Assembly: GCA_963664225.1 (NCBI GenBank)
Contig: OY760937.1
Location: 4,288,001 to 4,352,000 of the forward strand
Direction: 5' to 3'
Length of the DNA stretch: 64,000 bases
DNA from: Verrucomicrobiia bacterium
Lineage (GTDB): Bacteria > Verrucomicrobiota > Verrucomicrobiia > Limisphaerales > UBA1319
Part shown: one piece after another, positions 4,051-64,000 of the stretch
Numbering within the stretch: the stretch's first letter is position 1
Layout: each line of letters starts with the position of its first letter
Translations under genes and position numbers: made by a program
Notes under the pieces: generated by a model
What the model saw: only the letters and a program-made list of their open reading frames with translations
The model's database searches: none
What the model was told of the DNA's origin: nothing

Positions 4051-4302
4051 AACCGGCCTTCGCCTCCTCTCCGTGTCTTGAAAAAGGCACGCGTCTGGCC
4101 GCCGAACAAAGAAATGCAGCGCGGCATCTCTGTAAGGCTGCCGCCGCGAAATTTCCACAAGTCGGTTTGCATGGGCTCAATTTTAGAGAGGCGCTGCGGA
4201 AAAACCATCACTTTTTACGACTGCAAATCCGGCGGTTGAATTGACTGGGGCTAAATCCAGCACTTCCGGCGTGACCACCAAAGGTAATGCTGGCATATTG
4301 GC

Positions 4303-5064
4303 TTGGTGACACCGAATGATGCCTACGAATTGCTGGAACGATATCGCACTGGGAAAGTGACCCGGGAGAAGGTGCTGCAAGCCTTCCAATCGGCACCGAT
4401 GGCGGAACTGGGATTTGCCCATGTGGATACGCACCGGGCGTTGCGCCAGGGTTTCCCCGAGGTCATTTATGGTGGCGGCAAGACCCCGGAACAAGTGGTG
4501 AAGATCGCCGCCAAAATTTTGGAGCGCGATTCGCGGCTGCTCGTTACGCGGGCCGGGCCTGAGCACGCGAAAAAGATGCGCCGGATTTTTAAGAAGGCGA
4601 AGTATCATGAAGCCGCGCGGTGCATCACAGTGGAAACAGCGCCGCATCCCAAACGCCCGGGCAAGATTGTCGTGTTATGCGCGGGCACCAGCGATTTGCC
4701 TGTGGCCGAGGAGGCCGCGATCACCGCGGACATCATGGGTAACACGATCGAGCGCCTTTATGACGTGGGCGTGGCGGGGCTGCACCGGCTGCTGGGGAAA
4801 CTGGAGATGGTTCAGAGCGCGAACGTGCTCGTGGTGGTGGCGGGCATGGAAGGGGCGCTGCCCAGCGTGGTGGCGGGATTGGTGTCGCGCCCGGTGATTG
4901 CCGTGCCGACCAGCATAGGTTATGGGGCGAGCTTTGGGGGTGTGGCGGCGCTGCTGGGCATGCTCAATAGTTGCGGCAGCGGGGTGACGGTGGTGAATAT
5001 CGACAATGGGTTTGGCGCGGGATACGCGGCCAGCCAGATCAATGCGCTGGCGGTTGGCGCTTGA
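4303..5064 (+). CDS. larB: Nickel-pincer cofactor biosynthesis protein LarB (PurE-like)
   Basis: [66 protein letters not shown]; larC lies downstream. Confidence 0.93.
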
Positions 5065-5097
5065 GAGGCTTTGCATCTATGTTTGGCGAACCTTTTA

Positions 5098-5261
5098 ACC
5101 CGAAATCCGAAATAAGAATGGTCAAGACGATGCAATGCTTTGAGACAGCCATGATTTGCAATCGGCGAAGGTGTATTAAATCAATACTCCACAGCCGGTT
5201 TCAAACCATGGATGGCCAAATGATTGCGTCAGATGGGCCGTTCCTATTTCGGATTTCGGGT
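5098..5261. mobile_element. 164-bp MITE, copy 1 (non-autonomous, ACCCG...CGGGT ends)
   Basis: ~26-bp imperfect terminal inverted repeat ACCCGAAATCCGAAATA(A/G)GAA(T/C)GG(T/C)C. 3-bp duplication TTA at 5095-5097 and, beyond the intron, at 7237-7239. Near-identical copy at 37638-37801. Confidence 0.85.
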
Positions 5262-7236
5262 GTGCGCCAGTGAAATTGGTAGCCTCGTGGGTGAAAGTCC
5301 CGCCGGTCGAATTAGACGGTTCACGACCGAAATGCAGCGTCCGGGACGAGGCCGTGAGGCCGAACCACAAGCGGGACGCTGAAAGAACTGTCGGGTCGTA
5401 ACGAAAGTAAACCTCATCAAATGAGCTCCGAAACCGAAATAACCGGTAAGCCGAGCCGCTACCCGAACGGCGAAGGCAGAAACGCGGCGTCATCAAATCG
5501 TCAAATGGGCGCTGTTGATTCCGGCGGAGTCAGCGAGGGCGACACGACAGGAAGGGAAACCAAGGTAAGCTGGGAGATCTCTGGAGGCGGGGCGATAAAG
5601 CCTCAACCGCCGGTGCAAGGAGGAACACCCTCCGAGGCCGCACGGGCAGCCAGAGAAGTCGGAGTCTTCCATAGTAGCGAAGAAGCTGGGGCGACCAAAA
5701 CCCCGGCGGAGCCAAGGGAAGGCACTTGGATCGAAGCGAATCAAAACAGCGAGGGACAGGGAGATGGCCTTGAGGGAGTGGAAACACTTTTTCAACGGAT
5801 AACAACCCCGATAAAAGTTCAAAAGCTGCAGCGAGCGCTATATTGCAAAGCCAAGGCTGAGCCGAAGTATCGGTTTTACAGCCTCTACGGAGAACTGCTG
5901 CGGAAGGACGTGCTGGAAACGGCAATGGCCTCCGTGGCGCACAACAATGGCGCGGCTGGGATCGACGGGCAGACATGCGACGTCTATCTTGCCAGCGACG
6001 AAGCCTGGGACCAATGGCGGAACCAACTGCTGGAGGAGTTACGCACGAAGAAGTATCGGCCAAGCCCGGTGAAGCGTGTGTATATACCAAAAGGAGACGG
6101 GAAGCTGCGACCCCTGGGCATCCCGACAGTGAAAGACCGGGTGGTGCAGACAGCGGTGGTGATTGTATTGCTGCCGATTCTGGAAGCCGATAGTCATCCG
6201 AACAGTTACGCCTATCATCCCAAACGCAATGCCCACCAAGCAATGGAGGCGATCAAGAAGGCTACGCTGACAGGACGCGTCGAAGTTATAGACGCGGACT
6301 TAAGCGGGTATTTTGACAGCATTCCCCACAGGCGTTTGTTGCGCATAGTGGCCAAGCGGGTCAGCGATGGAACAATTCTCAAGCTGATCGCAGGATGGCT
6401 GCGCGCGCCCGTGAATGAACCGCAAAGCGACACAGGGAAAGGCGGGACAAAGGGGGGGCAAGGTCAGAATCGACGGGGGACTCCGCAAGGCGGGGTTGTA
6501 TCGCCGATTTTAGCCAATGCATACCTCAACCAGTTGGATTGGGAAGTCAACGAACGCTGCGAACTCAAACCCGTGATGGTGAGATACGCGGATGATTTCG
6601 TGATACTCGGACAGCCGGGGCAGGGACGGGAACTGATGGAACGACTGGAACGATGGCTGAAGCAACGCGAGTTAGTGCTCAACGAGAAGAAGACCCGCTT
6701 GGTGGACCTCCGCCAGGATGGCATCAAATTCTTGGGATTCGCGCTAACAATGCGACAGGGGAAGGGGAAATGGAAATATCCGCATGTGGAACCCCATCCC
6801 AAGAGCCAGAAGAAGTTTCGAGACGGGATTCGGGAGAAACTCAACCGAAGCACGCTATGGCGTGATATCGGAGAGGTGATTCCCGAGCTCAACAAGAAAC
6901 TCAAAGGTTGGAAGGGTTACTTTCACTACGGGAACAGCACCAAGGTGATGGGCCAGATGAACGAATACGTCAGCAGCAAGTTACAACGATGGTTGTGGCG
7001 CAAACACGGATGTAGTCGGGCGCAATGGTCCACATACCCCAAGGAGGATCTCTATGAGCGTTATGGTTTATACCAAATGCCGGAATATGCGGCATGGAAA
7101 CGATGACGTCGAAGCGATGCAACGTATGATCCCCGGAGAGCCGGATGCGGGAAAACCGCCTGTCCGGTTCGATGAGGGGCGAAATGCGACGGTCATTGGC
7201 CACGGCCATTCAATCCGTCCATTTCGCCTACTCTAC
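5262..7236 (+). mobile_element. Group II intron (IIB-like RNA features)
   Basis: 5' end GTGCG at 5262; domain V GAGCCGGATGCGGGAAAACCGCCTGTCCGGTTC at 7138-7170; domain VI with bulged A at ~7230 ending in AC at 7236. EBS1 ACCCGAA (5461-5467) sits in a GCCG/CGGC hairpin and is complementary to the 5' exon end TTCGGGT. Confidence 0.92.
5778..7106 (+). CDS. ltrA: Group II intron reverse transcriptase/maturase, no C-terminal endonuclease domain
   Basis: GAAGIDG, RVYIPKGDGKLRPLGIPTVKDRVVQ, DADLSGYFDSI, GTPQGGVVSPILAN, VRYADDFV and X-domain LKGWKGYF. Probable GTG start at 5778 with purine-rich GAGGGA just upstream; the ORF is open from 5421. Confidence 0.93.
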   Translation: METLFQRITTPIKVQKLQRALYCKAKAEPKYRFYSLYGELLRKDVLETAMASVAHNNGAAGIDGQTCDVYLASDEAWDQWRNQLLEELRTKKYRPSPVKRVYIPKGDGKLRPLGIPTVKDRVVQTAVVIVLLPILEADSHPNSYAYHPKRNAHQAMEAIKKATLTGRVEVIDADLSGYFDSIPHRRLLRIVAKRVSDGTILKLIAGWLRAPVNEPQSDTGKGGTKGGQGQNRRGTPQGGVVSPILANAYLNQLDWEVNERCELKPVMVRYADDFVILGQPGQGRELMERLERWLKQRELVLNEKKTRLVDLRQDGIKFLGFALTMRQGKGKWKYPHVEPHPKSQKKFRDGIREKLNRSTLWRDIGEVIPELNKKLKGWKGYFHYGNSTKVMGQMNEYVSSKLQRWLWRKHGCSRAQWSTYPKEDLYERYGLYQMPEYAAWKR

Positions 7237-7277
7237 TTAAGAGGGCATGTTTAGTTTTTAAATCATCCGGGCATACC

Positions 7278-8528
7278 ATGGCGAACATACTTTATTTGGA
7301 CCTTATCAGCGGCATCAGCGGAGACATGTTTCTGGGGGCGATGCTTGATCTGGGGGTGGATTTTGAACGGCTCAAGCGCGAACTGAGCTGGTTGTGCGCG
7401 GACGGTTGCACGCTGCGTTTTGAGCGCAAGGGGAAAATGGGCATTAACGGCGTCAAGTTCGATGTCGATCTGGCGCCGGTTCACGAGCACCACCATGAAG
7501 ACGAATCCGCCCATAAACACGGCGGGGCCGCTCATTCGCATGGCCATGAGCATGGACGGAATTTTGCGGAGATTCGCAAGCTCATCGAGACCAGTCCTTA
7601 TTCGGTCTGGGTGAAGGAGCGGGCGATTTCGATGTTTTCCCGGGTGGCGGTGGCCGAGGGGAAGATTCACGGGCATCCTCCCGAGGAAGTCCATTTTCAC
7701 GAGGTCGGCGCCATGGATTCCATCGTCGATATTGTCGGCGCATGCCTGGCCCTGGAATGGCTGGGGCGGCCGCGGGTGCTGGCCTCTGCGGTGGTGGATG
7801 GGACGGGATGGATCGATTGCGCGCATGGGCGTTTTCCCATTCCCGCGCCGGCCACGCTCGAAATATTGGCGGCACGGCAGGTGGCGGTAAGCCAATGCGA
7901 CGAGCCGCATGAACTGGTGACGCCCACGGGAGCGGCCTTGTTATCGGAGTTTGCCCAGGAGTTTGGCCCGATGGTTGGGCTCAAGCCGGTGAGAATCGGA
8001 TATGGCATCGGGGGACGGGATCATGTGACGCGACCCAATGTGTTGCGCGCGGTGCTTTGTGAAACGGATGAATCCAAGTCCGATTGGGAGACCGATAACG
8101 TGGTTCTGCTGGAAAGCAATATCGACGATTTGAATCCTGAAATTCTTGGAAATTTCATGGAAGTGGCCTTGGGGGCGGGCGCGTTGGATGTGTTTTACAC
8201 ACCCATCCAAATGAAGAAGAACCGGCCCGGAACGATGCTGTCACTCTTGTGCCCGATCGGGCAGGCGGATGCTTTTGCGGCGTTGATCCTCAGGGAAACC
8301 AGCGCGTTTGGCGTACGAAAAATCGTCTGCGAGCGTCGGAAATTGAGACGGGAGTTTTCCATCGTGGAGACTTCCTACGGACCGGTATCCATCAAGGTGG
8401 GGCGGCTCGATGGCGAGGTCTTGCACCGCACGCCCGAGTATGAATCCTGCAGGGAATTGGCGGCCAAGAAGAACGTGCCGGTGCGAAAGGTCTATGAAGC
8501 GGCCATCAAGGCGCTGCCCAAGGTTTGA
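7278..8528 (+). CDS. larC: Nickel-pincer cofactor nickel insertase LarC
   Basis: YLDLISGISGDMFLGAM, His-rich tract, VHFHEVGAMDSIVDIVG, ELVTPTGAA, ESNIDD, MKKNRPG, PEYESC. Confidence 0.93.
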   Translation: MANILYLDLISGISGDMFLGAMLDLGVDFERLKRELSWLCADGCTLRFERKGKMGINGVKFDVDLAPVHEHHHEDESAHKHGGAAHSHGHEHGRNFAEIRKLIETSPYSVWVKERAISMFSRVAVAEGKIHGHPPEEVHFHEVGAMDSIVDIVGACLALEWLGRPRVLASAVVDGTGWIDCAHGRFPIPAPATLEILAARQVAVSQCDEPHELVTPTGAALLSEFAQEFGPMVGLKPVRIGYGIGGRDHVTRPNVLRAVLCETDESKSDWETDNVVLLESNIDDLNPEILGNFMEVALGAGALDVFYTPIQMKKNRPGTMLSLLCPIGQADAFAALILRETSAFGVRKIVCERRKLRREFSIVETSYGPVSIKVGRLDGEVLHRTPEYESCRELAAKKNVPVRKVYEAAIKALPKV

Positions 8529-37637: not shown

Positions 37638-37801
37638 ACCCGAAATCCGAAATAAGAAATACGAATGGTCAAGACGATGCAATGCTTTGAGACAGCCATG
37701 ATTTGCAATCGGCGAAGGTGTATTAAACCAATACTCCACAGCCGGTTTCAAACCATGGATGGCCAAATGATTGCGTCAGATGGGCCGTTCCTATTTCGGG
37801 T
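37638..37801. mobile_element. 164-bp MITE, copy 2 (intron-free)
   Basis: Same core as 5098-5261; ACCCG...CGGGT ends; 3-bp duplication TGA at 37635-37637 and 37802-37804. Confidence 0.85.
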
Positions 37802-37893
37802 TGAAGGCACGTCGTCCCGGATTTGCCGCGTCGCCAGCGAAAGCCATTGACTTGAGCGGGTGCTGCCAATATCAATTTGAAAAACCCTGAGCT

Positions 37894-46304: not shown

Positions 46305-46654
46305 TCCGCAGGCGTCGCACGACAAATTACTTAAGAAAGTCCAAAAAGGCTTTAAACGCCATGGAGGTGTGTCCGGGGCTTTGTCATTGTAGCCGGGTGC
46401 CCCCACCCGGCGTCCCCGGCCCGGTGTATCGCAATCAAAAGCTCCATGGCAGACATTGGTTTGCGACCACCGTGACGTTCGTGGTAGGGCGTGCAGTCCT
46501 CTGCGCGCCGTTGGGGGTAACACATTGCAGGCCCGGGCGTCCCCGGCCCGGTGTATCGCAATCAAAAGCTCCATGGCAGACATTGGTTTGCGACCACTGA
46601 GGTTGCTTCGATTTGACGGACACAGGAGCGGAGCGAAACTTAATGAAAAACCGT

Positions 46655-46996
46655 ATGAAGCAATCTGTGATTCCCGATTCCAAGACTCATCCGAAGTATG
46701 ATTCTGCATTTAAGCAGGAAGCCGTGAACCTCTGGAAATCCAGCGGGAAATCGGCAGCCACGGTGGCGGCTGAGTTGGGGATAAAAATGGAGCGGCTCTA
46801 TGCCTGGCGCGCAAAATATGTGCCGCTGCCAACAGGGGAAGGAGCCGAAACAAAGACCCGTGAGCAGTTGCTGGCCGACAATGCCGCTTTGTTGCGCGAA
46901 CTGGACTATGTGCGCCAGCAGCGGGAGATTCTAAAAAAAACGTTGGGAATTCTTTCGGACCCCCAGAGCAACGCTATCAACGGGTTGAAGCGATGA
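46655..46996 (+). CDS. IS3 transposase OrfA (HTH)
   Basis: KYDSAFKQEAV, VAAELGI, LYAWR, REILKK; A8 run at 46933-46940 is a candidate -1 frameshift site. Start uncertain (46643 or 46655). Confidence 0.85.
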   Translation: MKQSVIPDSKTHPKYDSAFKQEAVNLWKSSGKSAATVAAELGIKMERLYAWRAKYVPLPTGEGAETKTREQLLADNAALLRELDYVRQQREILKKTLGILSDPQSNAINGLKR

Positions 46997-47835
46997 AAGT
47001 CGATCATCCCATCCGCCTGCTCTGTGAGGCCTTTGATGTGTCTTTTAGCGGCTACTATGATTGGTGCCGACGGCAAATCCAGCCTTCGTTGCGTGCCCGT
47101 CAGGACGCCGTATTGAAAGGGACCATCACAACGATTTTCAATGGCAGCCGCAAAACCTATGGCAGCCCGCGCATCCAGATCGCCTTGAAGCACCAGGGGC
47201 ACTGCCATGGTCGCAACCACATCGCCCGTTTAATGCGCCAGGAAGGCCTGCAGGCGCGTTCTAAAAAGCGTTTCAAGGTCCGAACCACCGACAGCAATCA
47301 TGATCAGCCCATTGCCCCCAACCGGCTGGCTCAAGCCGCGCCACCGGACCAACGCAATCAGACTTGGGTCGGGGACATCACCTACATTGCCACCGATGAA
47401 GGCTGGCTCTATCTCGCTGGCATTGAAGACCTTTACAGCCGCCGCATCGTGGGTTGGGGCATGAGCGAGCACATTGACACCGAACTGGTCCTGTCGGCCT
47501 GGAACATGGCCTGCATTCAGCGGCAACCCGAACCCGGATTGCTCTTTCATTCAGACCGGGGAGTCCAGTATGCCAGTCAGGATTATCGCCGGGCGATGGA
47601 AACCTCCGGTGCCCTGGCGAGCATGAGCCGCAGTGGCAACTGCTATGACAACGCGGCCATGGAATCCTTTTGGAGCACCCTTAAACAAGAACTGGTTTAT
47701 CGCCGGGTCTTTGCGACCCGAGCCCAGGCCCGACAGGCCATCTTTGATTACATCGAGACCTTCTATAATCGACAGCGTTTACACAGCACACTCAATTACA
47801 TGTCTCCTGTTGACTTTGAAAATATATCCAAATAA
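46993..47835 (+). CDS. IS3 transposase OrfB (DDE integrase core)
   Basis: TYGSPRI, WVGDITYI, GWLYLA..DLYSRRIVGW, HSDRGVQY, GNCYDNAAMESFW, YNRQRLHS. Confidence 0.93.
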   Translation: MKVDHPIRLLCEAFDVSFSGYYDWCRRQIQPSLRARQDAVLKGTITTIFNGSRKTYGSPRIQIALKHQGHCHGRNHIARLMRQEGLQARSKKRFKVRTTDSNHDQPIAPNRLAQAAPPDQRNQTWVGDITYIATDEGWLYLAGIEDLYSRRIVGWGMSEHIDTELVLSAWNMACIQRQPEPGLLFHSDRGVQYASQDYRRAMETSGALASMSRSGNCYDNAAMESFWSTLKQELVYRRVFATRAQARQAIFDYIETFYNRQRLHSTLNYMSPVDFENISK

Positions 47836-48204
47836 CCTATATGTGTCTTCTGTGTCCGATTTATCGAAGCAAGCCCACACCGTGACGTTCGTGGTAGGGC
47901 GTGCAGTCCTCTGCGCGCCGTTGGGAGTAACACATTGTAGGCCCGGGCGTCCCCGGCCCGGTGTATCGCAATCAAAAGTTTCATGGGTGAGTCGGAGAGA
48001 GTTGTTCTCCATTAATATTCCAGCCATCGGTTTGCGGAAAGGCAATGCACACGCGCGCTGGTGAATGAACCGACCCCGCGATTCTTCTCCCTCTCCTGCG
48101 CCAGCGGGAGAGGGTGCGGGGTGAGGGCGCCCTTTTCATATTCCCGTTCGCTTCCAAAACGAAACCGGCAAGAGCGGAGAGTCAGAGGCAGCTTGTGCCT
48201 TCCC

Positions 48205-51491: not shown

Positions 51492-52031
51492 GATCGACGC
51501 GAACGATATCAGACCGGGTAGGTTCTGGATAACAAGTTTTTCATGGCAACACGGTATTTCGCGCAGATGCCACACAATTAATACTAGCTGACTCATTAAA
51601 CAGAATGAGCTAATGAATATGCATTCGCGGTAGGGCGGGCAGTCCTCTGCACGCCGTCGGCGATCTATTCTGCTTCCATGCGTCCAAAAGCCAAAAGCTT
51701 GCGAAACGCGCGATCTTCTCTCTCGCCCCAAACCTGAATTGGCACGAGCGGGCAGAGCCGGAGTGTGTGTTCGGGGCTTTGTCCTTCTAGGCCGGGTGCC
51801 CCCACCCGGCGTCCGGAGAGCGGCCCCACTGAACCGTATAATCCGATCGCGCGATTCTTCTCCCTCTCCTGCGCCAGCGGGAGAGGGTACGGGGTGAGGG
51901 TGCCTCCGAAGATTTTTGTCCTGCACCCGAGTAATAACCGGTCATCTCATTTTTGTTGCAATAAATCGAGCAAGGCGCAATGTGACTGGACATAACTTCG
52001 GGGAATTGGTCCGAAGCTTCGCTCAATAATT

Positions 52032-60305: not shown

Positions 60306-60382
60306 TGGTGCGTCGGTCCGGACTTGAACCGGAAACCATTTGATCCGAAGTCAAAAGCTCTATCCAATTGAGCTACCGACGC
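60306..60382 (-). tRNA. tRNA-Arg, anticodon UCG
   Basis: Reverse complement GCGTCGGTAGCTCAATTGGATAGAGCTTTTGACTTCGGATCAAATGGTTTCCGGTTCAAGTCCGGACCGACGCACCA: 7-bp acceptor stem, anticodon arm TTTGA-CTTCGGA-TCAAA, T-loop GTTCAA, encoded CCA. Confidence 0.93.
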
Positions 60383-60639: not shown

Positions 60640-61020
60640 CATGTCCTCACGCAGCCTCCCGGTTCCAGCGGCAGCTACCATGTTCGATCATGTGATTCTG
60701 CAGTCGCGGGGCGACCATTGACGGTAGCCCTGGGTTTCAACCCATGGAAAGGATTTCACCCCCGCGTTTAGCATATTTCCCGCTGCCTTTTCGTCGCGTC
60801 GCGACAGTTGAATATCGGGCATCGCTCTGAATTGCAAAATTCCACCTGCCGGTGCCACCCATCCTCGGGGCTACCCGGGACCGCCGTCCCCATCGGAATC
60901 CCCAACGCTGTAGGCGTTGAATCAAACTCACTCCCGCACCTCTCCAAATCGGTTCGCACTGCCAGGACATTTGCGGGTAGGAGGGCGTGCAGTCCTCTGC
61001 GCGCCGCCGACAATCCCACG
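60640..61020 (+). repeat. ~350-bp composite palindromic repeat, copy A
   Basis: Matches ~62845-63220 at an offset of ~2202 nt; contains GTAGCCCTGGGTTTCAACCCATGG, GTCGCGTCGCGAC, AACGCTGTAGGCGTT and GGCGTGCAGTCCTCTGCGCGCC. Confidence 0.85.
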
Positions 61021-61461
61021 CGGCGGCATCTCTCAAACACCCTCCACCCCGCGACTTTCGAAACTTCAATTTCTTCCATTGTCCATTAATCCCTTTCCCC
61101 ATCGGTGTCATCCGTGCAATCCGTGGTTGAAAATCCCCCTTCGAGCTCTTTGATCTTCCAAGTAACAAATCTATAACAATTAGCGGCAATGCATTTTATA
61201 AAAGCGCTAAAAATCACAAAACGGCCTCCGATTCAGCCGGGTTGATTCACCGAACAGTCCCCCGCAGGGCCGGACCTGCCCTGTGCAGGCAAATCCAATA
61301 ATTGGTTAAAAACGAACTTGTCTTTCTGCTTGTTTGTGTCAGGATCGCCACCAATCCAATGTGCAACCTGTTGTGGGTGAAAACCCACTTGGACCGTTGT
61401 TTAAAACAACCTGAGTCATTGCAATGACTGCTTGCGGGATCGTAACGGATGGGAGAACCAA

Positions 61462-62607
61462 ATGAAACCTACCGAAATTCTTTTCGTGAGTTGGCTGTCC
61501 TTCATGGCTTTGGCGTCGGGATGCCCCGCTTTGGCGCAAAGCGTAAGTCTCGAGATCGAGGCCGTTGACTCATCGCCGCACTTGACCATCCACAGCGATC
61601 TGGGAGTGACCAATGTGATCGAATATACAGAGGCGTTGGCGACCAACCAATGGCATGCATTGACCAATCTCATGGTGAACATCAATCCCTATGTGGTGGT
61701 GGACGTGGGAGGATCAGTCGCCCAGCGATTTTATCGGGTGGTGATTCCCGACAACACGAATGCTCCAGCCGGGATGGTCCTGATTCCAGCGGGTTCGTAC
61801 ACCATGGGGGATGCAATCGAGGGGGGATCTGGTGACGAACAGCCGACGCACCCGGTTTATGTCAGCCGGTTTTTTATGGACAGGAACAAAGTCACCAAAG
61901 CGCTATGGGACGAGGTCTATACTTGGGCCACGTTACATGGATACAGCTTTGAGAATGCCGGTTTGGGCAAGGCCGCCAATCACCCGGTGCAGACGGTGAG
62001 TTGGCACGACATGGTCAAGTGGTGCAATGCGCGGAGCGAGAAGGAGGGGCGGGTGGTGGCTTATTACACCGATGCGGCGCAGACAACGATTTATCGCACA
62101 GGCCAGGTGGATCTGCAAAACGATTGGGTGAAGTGGAATGCAGGCTATCGTCTGCCGACGGAGGCGGAGTGGGAAAAGGCCGCAAGGGGTGGAACCACCG
62201 GACACCGATTTTATTGGGGGGACACGATCACTCACAGCCAGGCGAATTATCAAAGCGACGCTTCGTGGGCCTATGACATCAGTCCGACGCGCGGTTTTCA
62301 TCCAAGCTACGACAACGATCCGATGCCTTACACGAGTCCGGTGGGATCCTTTGCCCCCAATGGGTATGGGCTTTATGACATGGCGGGCAATGTGTGGGAT
62401 CGCTGCTGGGACTGGTGGGGTTCGTATTCGAGCGGATCACAAACCGACCCACGTGGACCCACATCGGGATCGATTCACGTTTTCCGTGGAGGCAGTTGGA
62501 TCAACTTCGGCAGCGGCTGCCGGCTTTCGCGCCGCCCCAACAGTTGGCCGGGCAACGTGGTCAATAACAGCGCGATTGGGTTCCGTTGCGCCCTCGGTCG
62601 GCCTTGA
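61462..62607 (+). CDS. Secreted FGE-sulfatase (SUMF1 / C-lectin fold) domain protein
   Basis: Signal peptide; MVLIPAGSYTMG, HPVQTVSW, YRLPTEAEWEKAARGG, PNGYGLYDMAGNVW, RGGSW...IGFR. Confidence 0.88.
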   Translation: MKPTEILFVSWLSFMALASGCPALAQSVSLEIEAVDSSPHLTIHSDLGVTNVIEYTEALATNQWHALTNLMVNINPYVVVDVGGSVAQRFYRVVIPDNTNAPAGMVLIPAGSYTMGDAIEGGSGDEQPTHPVYVSRFFMDRNKVTKALWDEVYTWATLHGYSFENAGLGKAANHPVQTVSWHDMVKWCNARSEKEGRVVAYYTDAAQTTIYRTGQVDLQNDWVKWNAGYRLPTEAEWEKAARGGTTGHRFYWGDTITHSQANYQSDASWAYDISPTRGFHPSYDNDPMPYTSPVGSFAPNGYGLYDMAGNVWDRCWDWWGSYSSGSQTDPRGPTSGSIHVFRGGSWINFGSGCRLSRRPNSWPGNVVNNSAIGFRCALGRP

Positions 62608-62629
62608 GCGGTCCGAAACAGACAGGCGG

Positions 62630-63790
62630 ATTCCGCAGTCGCGGAGAATATGTAAACACGATTCTTGATGTAAGAAATAGGCCATCTTGCGCCGCAGCGA
62701 AATGTAGGCCGCGTGCCCTCACGCGGCGTCCGGGTCCCAGCGGCGGCGACCATGTTCAAACGTGCAATTCCCGGTCGCGGAGAATATGTGAATGCGATTT
62801 TTGATGAACGAAATGGGCCATCTTGCGTCGCAACGAAATGTAGGCCGCGTGCCCTCACGCGGCGTCCGGGTCCCTGCGGACCGTATTCAAACATGCGATT
62901 CCCGGTCGCGGAGCGACCATTGACGGTAGCCATGGGTTTCAACCCATGGAAAGGATTTCACCCCCGCGTTTAGCATATTTCCCGCTGCCTTTTCGTCGCG
63001 TCGCGACGCTTGAATTATGGGCATCCCTCTGAATTGCAAAATTCCACCTGCCGGTGCCACCCATCTCCGGGCTACCCGGGACCGCCGTCCCCATCGGAAT
63101 CCCCAACGCTGTAGGCGTTGAATCAAACTCACTCCCGCACCTCTCCAAATCGGTTCGCGACCACCGCGACCTTCGTGGTAGGAGGGAGTGCAGTCCTCTG
63201 CGCGCCGCCGACAATCCCGCGCGCCGTCAGCGCAGCTTGCCAATCTGCGAACCGTTTCAAACTCACAGTCCCGGCAGGAATCGCAAAACCTTTTCCATGT
63301 AGCGCAGACATCTTGTCTGCCGTATCGCGGATTTCCAATCCGCCAGCCTTCTCAAAAATCCAGGGCACCAAACAAAATTCTCCGGTTCGCGACCGGCATT
63401 CCCTTTCCGCGGCAGGGCGTGCAGTCCTCTGCGCGCCGCCGACAATCCCGCGCGCCGTCACCGCGGATTTCCAATCCGCCAGCCTTCTCAAAAATCCAGG
63501 GCACCAAACAAACTTCTCCGATTCGCGACCGCCATTCCCTTTCCGTGGTAGGTCGTGCAGTCCTCTGCGCGCCGTTGGGAGTATCACATTGTAGGCCCGG
63601 GTGCCCCCACCCGGCGTCCGGAGAACGACCACACTCAACCGAATAACCCAATCGCGCGATTCCTCTCCCTGCGCCAGCGGGAGGGTGGGTCAACCCGGAA
63701 CGGGTTGCATCACTCAGCCCCGGGTCGCGAGGCACGAGCCACCCGGGGTCCCCGTCTCCAAGATTCGCCTACGCTGTAAGCGTTGAATCA
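62630..63790 (+). repeat. Mosaic of REP-like palindromes: 136-bp tandem units, copy B of the composite repeat and further units
   Basis: GTAGGCCGCGTGCCCTCACGCGGC at 62704 and 62840; CGCGGATTTCCAATCCGCCAGCCTTCTCAAAAATCCAGGGCACCAAACAAA at 63326 and 63462; GTAG-led hairpins at 62926, 63178, 63299, 63548, 63591. Confidence 0.85.
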
Positions 63791-64000
63791 AAGCCATGGG
63801 ACGTGCAACCCGCAGCCAATGGTCAATCCATTTGGCGGTCCTGGCCGGACTGGCACGGAGCGGTGGCGTAAGAAAGCGCATCGAGGAAGCGCCAGTCCTC
63901 CGCTGTTTCAAGGCGTAGCTCTTTCAAGTGGAATCGAAACCTCTGATGTCTTGCGCGAGGGGAGGGAATGGTTCGGTCTATTCAATCCTTCAAACATGAA

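Follow-up and report, generated by a model that had tools for sequence, protein, structure and literature searches.

An endonuclease-less group II intron occupies the outer ends of IS1380-family elements and their miniature derivatives in a Verrucomicrobiia chromosome

Introduction

The closest described counterpart of the group II intron reported here is RmInt2 of S. meliloti GR4, which is reported in seven copies distributed over the left and right repeats of the insertion sequence (IS) ISRm17 (PMC4615759; PMC5894124). Its authors point out that the inverted repeats of an IS double the number of targets and ensure that one of them lies on the lagging-strand template, and the same report describes a lagging-strand-template bias as experimentally shown for both RmInt1 and RmInt2 (PMC4615759). 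RmInt1, resident in ISRm2011-2, is the model for fork-dependent retrohoming. Here we describe a complete group II intron of 1975 nt at 5262-7236, plus strand, of a 64,000-nucleotide stretch of DNA (hereafter the window; positions 4288001-4352000 of contig OY760937.1, GCA_963664225.1) from a Verrucomicrobiia bacterium (Limisphaerales; UBA1319). The intron stands just outside the terminal repeat of a miniature inverted-repeat transposable element (MITE), and we consider it highly probable that it is an endonuclease-less mobile intron retrohoming to the junction between the outward repeat of an IS1380-family element or MITE and the 5-bp TTNAA target duplication.

Homing to IS inverted repeats is, as a principle, already published for RmInt2 and ISRm17. 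The idea of homing to a MITE end, put forward in a first-pass annotation of this locus, is less new than that annotation implied, given the RmInt2 precedent (PMC4615759). In the published descriptions RmInt2 resembles the present intron in lacking an endonuclease, in having its copies in the terminal repeats of one IS, and in finding two potential opposite-strand sites per element; it also tolerates weak pairing of its second exon-binding site (EBS2; 4 bp) and uses a U-A type pair between EBS3 and the third intron-binding site (IBS3), as appears to be the case here. The two differ in placement. At the GR4 locus compared here, RmInt2 interrupts the repeat at a point 20 nt into the IS and is directed inward. 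The present intron is directed outward, starts one base past the tip, leaving the element undivided, and has the duplication itself as part of its target (positions -1 and +1), unlike RmInt2. At this GR4 locus, located by the coordinates published with PMC4615759, the 20-nt terminal repeat is followed directly by the RmInt2 start GTGTG, and the 3' exon runs on into the IS.

The two introns also differ in class and in abundance. RmInt2 belongs to open reading frame (ORF) class D and to Rfam D1D4-2, whereas the intron here matches D1D4-6; the two proteins are 28% identical over 408 residues, and the class D C-terminal motif as given in PMC4615759, LX3AX3PXLF[V/A]HW, was not seen in the last 60 residues of the intron protein. 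RmInt2 is described with seven copies, in the IS only, whereas we count 19 copies, 13 of them at the MITE. The class D intron RmInt1 is likewise described as endonuclease-less, targeted through EBS1, EBS2 and EBS3, biased toward the lagging-strand template and resident in an IS; it inserts inside its IS and is reported to block IS spread (PMC5894124), whereas the present intron leaves the IS uninterrupted. The part of PMC3552965 that bears on intron classes offers no diagnostic usable for this one. Plasmid-borne relatives are at most 42% identical to it, and the intron on a Nitrobacter hamburgensis plasmid matches Rfam D1D4-4, not D1D4-6. Among the literature matches listed, no paper pairs 'group II intron' with 'MITE' or with 'IS1380' in its title or abstract. 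The present case is convergent with RmInt2, a different intron class drawing on the same resource, and its new parts are the outward-facing, non-disruptive, MITE-exploiting geometry and the chromosome-wide strand pattern.

Results

The intron occurs 19 times in the genome, each copy 100% identical over 1975 nt, and the word depth of the unitig that covers it (5255-7237) in an independent run, X1, agrees with this copy number (427 vs ~20 for the flanks). All 19 copies are preceded by the same 13 nt, ...TCGGA(G/T)TTCGGGT, and followed by T(T/A)AA, which bears out the first-pass annotation in the tabulation that it had proposed. Eight copies stand at the left end of the MITE, five at its right end, and four at the parent IS, three of them at the same end; the remaining two are at lone tip motifs, which have only the last 12-15 nt of the tip and a TTAAA flank in common with the elements; 17/19 copies, in other words, are at the terminal repeats of one IS family. 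The intron-free genome contains 263 TTCGGGT^T sites (the caret marks the insertion point), 50 of which have TCGGA(G/T) upstream, and the introns fall within these 50 in 19/19 cases and at none of the other 213 (Fisher p 8e-16), in line with the earlier proposal of homing programmed by EBS/IBS pairing to the outer end of the element. Counted across this one closed chromosome, the target motif occurs 51 times, with 19 occurrences occupied and 32 empty. As had been noted, two unoccupied minus-strand examples of this 13-nt target are found in the window, at 5097 and 37637 (genome 4293097 and 4325637). The proposal of up to two sites per element thus stands as far as sequence goes; in practice only the replication-favoured end is used, and no element carries an intron at both ends. 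MITE copies are 92.7-100% identical to one another while the introns are identical, which indicates that the introns arrived after the MITE had spread.

In metagenome run X6, a contig covers window positions 5258-7168 with 7 differences in 1911 nt, together with MITE-like pieces, and a near-identical intron is present in this independent sample. Forty related genomes gave only partial or distant matches, and the same-genus genome G001 (93% complete, 230 contigs) gave neither intron nor MITE; repeats often go unassembled in such genomes, so nothing firm follows from either result. Four short matches to the reverse transcriptase region (~76% over ~120 nt), near 1677346, 2330538, 5162225 and 5605174 in the genome, point to other, different group II introns.

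The MITE carrying the window copy has a 162-bp core, CCCG...CGGG, at 5099-5260, and is preceded by the left copy of a 5-bp target duplication, TTTAA, at 5094-5098. When every intron was deleted in silico and the flanks of 22 elements were compared, the 5-bp flanks were identical in 21/22, mostly TTTAA or TTAAA and otherwise TTGAA, TTTAT or TTGAG. The occurrence of TTTAT and TTGAG implies that the base adjoining CCCG is part of the duplication and not of the element, so the element is the CCCG...CGGG core with a 5-bp TTNAA duplication. The intron therefore follows the initial T (5261) of the right-hand duplication, one base past the end of the element, and the remainder of that duplication, TTAA, comes after the intron at 7237-7240. 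The first base of the 3' exon is T (T7237, IBS3), as the first-pass annotation had stated, and position +1 is T in 19/19 copies. That annotation was also right that removing the intron joins ...TTCGGGT to TTAAG and that the element is left intact, the insertion lying 1 nt outside the element core; its 164-bp element, 3-bp duplication and exact element boundary are replaced by 162 bp, 5-bp TTNAA and a position 1 nt inside the duplication. Since the duplications surround the element alone, the intron entered after each element's insertion.

The same tip sequence terminates a 1532-bp element, present in five identical copies in the genome, whose transposase is of the IS1380 family (NF033539 at 227.2 bits, cut-off 180; Pfam DDE_Tnp_1_4). 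IS1380-family members, as described in ISfinder, have ends that start with CC and a 4-5 bp duplication, and the target element fits this description with its CCCG...CGGG ends and the 5-bp duplication seen in 21/22 elements. The MITE and the IS have their tips (CCCGAA[A/C]TCCGA) and the TTNAA duplication in common, and no similarity between them past the tips was detected. Being short and multi-copy, with the same tips and the same duplication, the MITE has the features of a derivative of an IS1380-family element. Genome-wide it is present in 19 full-length copies, several interrupted copies and some fragments, and its 45-nt arms are 78% complementary. ORFs of 60 aa or more in the window overlap the MITE, which we take to be probably non-coding. 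A consensus scan for outward promoters found no sigma-70-like site in the MITE, the sigma-70 consensus being uninformative for this organism.

A second, intron-free MITE copy lies in the window at 37639-37800 between TTGAA flanks, and in the repeat comparison 5098-5261 recurs at 37644-37802. Its minus-strand end has the full target and lies on the disfavoured strand. Its left arm carries a 7-nt insertion and its right arm a 7-nt deletion (one TTTCGGA unit), which cancel out in length. Through the deletion the plus-strand end, in other respects the favoured one, has lost the IBS2 region but retains IBS1 and T+1, and this site is empty. Elsewhere in the genome, two MITEs (828002-831676 and 2984654-2988329) each contain an IS1380-family element, inserted at one and the same place in the middle of the MITE (~77-83, a TTAAA-like site) and pointing the same way relative to it; the intron is at a different IS end in each. 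Either the MITE centre is an insertion hot spot or the MITE::IS composite moved as one unit. A third MITE (264553-266581) has the same split point and ~1.86 kb of other DNA inside.

The intron itself has the anatomy of a bacterial mobile group II intron. As the first-pass annotation had it, the intron spans 5262-7236, starting GTGCG at 5262 and ending AC at 7235-7236, which fits the 5' GUGYG and 3' AY boundaries. The domain I-IV scaffold matches Rfam RF02005 (D1D4-6) at 5294-5539, with a score barely over cut-off (54.9 bits, cut-off 49), and domains V and VI match RF00029 at 7136-7236 on the plus strand (49.3 bits, cut-off 40). The intron-encoded protein, a reverse transcriptase and maturase, is read from an ORF in domain IV at 5778-7106, plus strand; its GTG start at 5778 is assigned as the sole in-frame start close to the conserved N-terminus. 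The protein passes the NCBIfam equivalog TIGR04416 (group II reverse transcriptase/maturase) at 357 bits against a cut-off of 300. Its Pfam domains are RVT_1 and GIIM only, and the C-terminus lies ~25 residues past GIIM; a Pfam scan found no endonuclease or DNA-binding domain after domain X. Outside the ORF the intron RNA amounts to ~650 nt (5262-5777 and 7107-7236). These models, boundaries and ORF, together with EBS1-IBS1 pairing, count among the defining features of a bacterial mobile group II intron, alongside self-splicing and retromobility. Over window 4300-8300, no contig of four runs (X1, X4, X5 and X6) contained the exon-exon joint 5261-7237; unitigs break at the repeat, so this is evidence neither way. 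One weak contig joint in run X5, from 4935 to 7310 (side 22), is not interpretable.

We compared the pairing elements of the intron with those of its relatives, for which we gathered five full-length introns ~77% identical to it from public metagenome-assembled genomes, 31 metagenome loci with a common 24-nt domain I motif, and one ORF-less relative from a related genome. EBS1 (ACCCGAA, 5461-5467, plus strand) occupies the 9-nt loop of a GCCG/CGGC hairpin in the covariance-model alignment and is complementary to IBS1 (TTCGGGT, 5255-5261), which consists of the six repeat-tip bases and the first T of the duplication and is identical at 19/19 copies. The EBS1 loop could be located in 20/31 metagenome loci, giving 22 sequences with the reference and the ORF-less relative; the other 11 were left out of the tally because the loop pattern was unmatched, three of them having <90 nt of domain I. 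Pairing of EBS1 with the last seven exon bases is 7/7 in 19/22 sequences and 6/7 in the other three, and it is 7/7 in the four close homologs that have a 5' exon. In a 26-row alignment, 98.4% of the 182 EBS1-IBS1 cells pair as standard and 7/7 pairs vary on both sides; 0/500 shuffles match the observed score, and sliding the partner by 1-3 columns lowers the figure to 31-46%. The assignment of ACCCGAA as EBS1, which the first-pass annotation had made from complementarity, is settled by this covariation.

For EBS2, the first-pass annotation had offered two candidates, both of which are indeed complementary to the next part of the repeat. TCCG of TCCGAAA (5427-5433) is in a stem of the covariance model, which leaves CCGAAATA (5434-5441, plus strand), in an internal loop of domain I that is unpaired in the RF02005 alignment, as the probable EBS2; it is complementary to the probable IBS2, TATTTCGG (positions -17 to -10; 5245-5252, plus strand). 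Relatives pair with exon positions -14 to -10 from the equivalent loop, and TCGGA at -13 to -9 is invariant in the 19 occupied sites. EBS2 pairing of at least 5 bp with the own exon is found in 13/26 sequences, vs 24% for mismatched intron-exon combinations; within this genome, as read from the site listing, it ranges from 8 bp at MITE ends down to 4 bp at one lone site. For EBS3, A5532 is a tentative candidate that would pair with T at +1: in a six-sequence alignment its column holds A in the four introns with a confirmed T+1 (the reference, L032, L034 and L035), in L036, where A is the first base of the 3' exon, it holds T, and no other column shows this pattern in our reading. L033 also has A, its single downstream base lying one past the aligned intron end at a contig end.

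The occupied sites are strongly asymmetric with respect to strand. Plus-strand copies fall within 0.05-0.95 Mb and 2.99-5.61 Mb, and minus-strand copies within 1.66-2.19 Mb. The gene dnaA lies at 2,990,068-2,991,396 on the minus strand, with two near-consensus DnaA boxes, the only two found, just upstream in an AT-rich gap, and cumulative GC skew turns at ~1.3-1.4 Mb. With the origin set at the dnaA-upstream region (~2.9917 Mb) and the terminus at the skew turn (~1.35 Mb), 18/26 sites co-oriented with replication are filled vs 1/25 anti-oriented sites (p 1e-6). Where the sense strand of an intron copy is the leading strand, insertion was into the lagging-strand template, and the bias fits priming at that template. 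Given the origin and terminus so placed, this is a lagging-strand-template bias of the RmInt1/RmInt2 type.

Among the relatives, target sequences vary together with EBS1. Two of the four close homologs (77% identical) stand at sequences resembling the tip, in one case ...TTTTCAGG^T with TGAAT after it and in the other ...TTTTCAGG^A. The remaining two are at unrelated sequences, a placement that the first-pass annotation had flagged as adverse to its reading; each of these two has a matching EBS1, as in ordinary retargeting, and the reading is not refuted by them. Retargeting through EBS1 change is the rule among the relatives. Upstream of the intron at the metagenome locus L134 is the C-terminus of a transposase with 55% identity to the IS1380-family one here (E 3e-18); the L134 5' exon is one base off the tip of this IS, within IBS1, and its EBS1 has the compensating change. 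L112 lies downstream of an IS1634-like transposase C-terminus, and L111 and L139 interrupt an IS1380-family transposase gene, away from the tip. A screen of 146 ORF fragments upstream of relatives placed IS1380 in two loci and IS1634 in one; the rest matched IS21, IS200/605 or IS6, a further intron or ordinary genes, or gave no match. Three of the relatives' loci (3/32) have their tip repeated in inverted orientation 165-195 nt upstream, and a tip-like pattern, (A/G)ACT...(C/T)(A/G/C)GG^N, is seen in 7/26 aligned 5' exons. That the whole lineage is an obligate parasite of IS1380-type tips, tracking tip changes by compensating EBS1 changes, seems to us rather unlikely on these sequences. Under that reading the target would come into being only once the transposon has integrated, positions -1 and +1 being bases of the duplication, and the intron, lying outside the element, would spread on transposon and MITE bursts without disabling them. 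The screen does not establish lineage-wide specialisation on such tips, its IS1380 matches being in two loci only, both inside the transposase gene.

The ORF-less relative (L003; G034:C102, 1308-2002, minus strand) is ~695 nt long, with domain I 71% and domains V/VI 84% identical to the reference; it has a perfect 7-bp EBS1-IBS1 pairing with its own 5' exon and lies just downstream of a long GC-rich palindrome. A sub-group of the metagenome loci, L117, L118, L123, L125, L128, L130 and L138, has no GTGCG start at the position set by EBS1-IBS1 pairing, and these introns apparently start GCAGCAGCC or GTGGCAGCC, with a 5' end 1-2 nt longer than that of the reference.

Discussion

The association of the intron with these tips is far beyond chance, and the mechanism we propose for it appears well grounded in sequence. 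EBS1 (ACCCGAA) of the excised intron RNA would pair with the last six repeat bases and the first duplication T, EBS2, probably CCGAAATA, with a neighbouring segment of the repeat, and EBS3, for which A5532 is the likely base, with the second T of the duplication. The intron RNA would then reverse-splice into that DNA strand and be copied by its own reverse transcriptase, presumably primed by nascent lagging-strand DNA at replication forks. The protein is predicted to be unable to cut the opposite strand, and such fork priming would explain why only the tip in the lagging-strand template is used. Each fresh IS or MITE insertion would make a new site and stay uninterrupted.

Several points weigh against this reading. 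EBS2 is moderately supported, and the candidate EBS3 hangs on a single covarying event. The IBS bases are predicted to be locked within the MITE hairpin in a MITE transcript, and this locking could hinder splicing at 13/19 copies. Splicing and retromobility we infer solely from copy identity (19 identical copies, one target), and the intron may still be active at present. Eight full-motif, co-oriented sites are still empty, and one copy, at genome 2986270, is scored on the disfavoured strand; it lies ~5 kb from the presumed origin, and placing the origin to its left changes the split to 19/26 vs 0/25. The origin and terminus calls, made from dnaA, two DnaA-like boxes and GC skew, are soft: for the greater part of the plus strand the skew is positive, it never comes back to zero, and it is flat at 1.9-3.6 Mb. 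The two chromosome arms implied, of ~1.6 and ~4.1 Mb, are very unequal, and the orientations of the introns are consistent with this inequality.

A different account starts from the shape of the target. Group IIC introns have no endonuclease domain and insert right after terminators, attC sites and other hairpins, often intergenic, with a target made up of a stem-loop and a short IBS1 and no EBS2. If the present intron recognized DNA in this way, landing after the long MITE hairpin with base-pairing to the tip secondary, the 13/19 copies at MITEs and the lack of an endonuclease domain, a trait of IIC proteins, would be accounted for; single-stranded, the MITE folds as one long, near-perfect hairpin, with an energy of -82.2 kcal/mol and a z of -9.9, and its stem ends one base before the intron. 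We nevertheless find recognition by shape very unlikely. For six of the 19 copies a partner arm is missing from the vicinity (four occupy IS ends, which are separated by 1.5 kb, and two occupy lone motifs), a 7-bp EBS1 with full covariation plus an EBS2 segment accounts for all sites, and relatives stand at many sequences, with the inverted tip copy upstream in only 3/32 loci. Its long EBS1, its EBS2 segment and the 6/19 sites without a hairpin partner also place the intron outside the IIC definition, and its ~650 nt of RNA beyond the ORF is a further difference from IIC introns.

The strand asymmetry might alternatively arise from transcription, if only introns in sense orientation were expressed, spliced and retained. 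The window copy does lie in sense between two plus-strand host genes, a larB-like AIR-carboxylase-fold gene at 4303-5064 and a larC-like nickel-insertion gene at 7278-8528. Gene-orientation bias in this chromosome is weak, however (41-61% per 200 kb by long ORFs, with one 200-kb window at 33%), and could not yield 18 or 19 of 19, gene context having been examined for the window copy alone; moreover, the introns change orientation at two places only, one close to the skew turn and the other close to dnaA, and we hold retention by transcription to be very unlikely as well.

Least likely of all is passive cargo, in which MITE-plus-intron or IS-plus-intron units were copied in place of 19 homings: the intron is always physically attached to IS or MITE elements, and mobilisation of neighbouring DNA is known from IS1380-family members such as ISEcp1, but the 5-bp duplications enclose just the element and reappear only when the intron is taken out (21/22 elements). 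Moreover, at least three types of element have the same intron, at one end or the other, and identical introns are attached to MITEs that differ by up to 7%. The strand pattern would not be expected from passive copying, and no element-plus-intron unit with its own duplication beyond the intron was seen.

The intron gives a second, independent case of a group II intron living off the terminal repeats of a DNA transposon, differing from the first in class and geometry: here the transposon remains whole, and landing sites are made more numerous by its miniature derivatives. With 19 identical copies vs 32 empty sites of the same sequence in one closed chromosome, the genome is a natural experiment that offers a whole-chromosome view of an endonuclease-less intron filling only the replication-favoured strand. 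The intron orientations may serve as an independent marker of replication direction where GC skew is hard to read, and the lineage is a source of naturally occurring EBS1 variants, together with the targets that match them, for targetron-type tools.

Apart from the intron and the MITEs, the window contains a dense patch of other repeat families (46367-48131, 51626-51904 and 60703-63792). The patch includes a 40-nt unit around GCAGTCCTCTGCGCGCC that occurs 7 times and, near a tRNA gene at 60309-60382, duplicated blocks of 94-167 nt lying ~2.2 kb apart.

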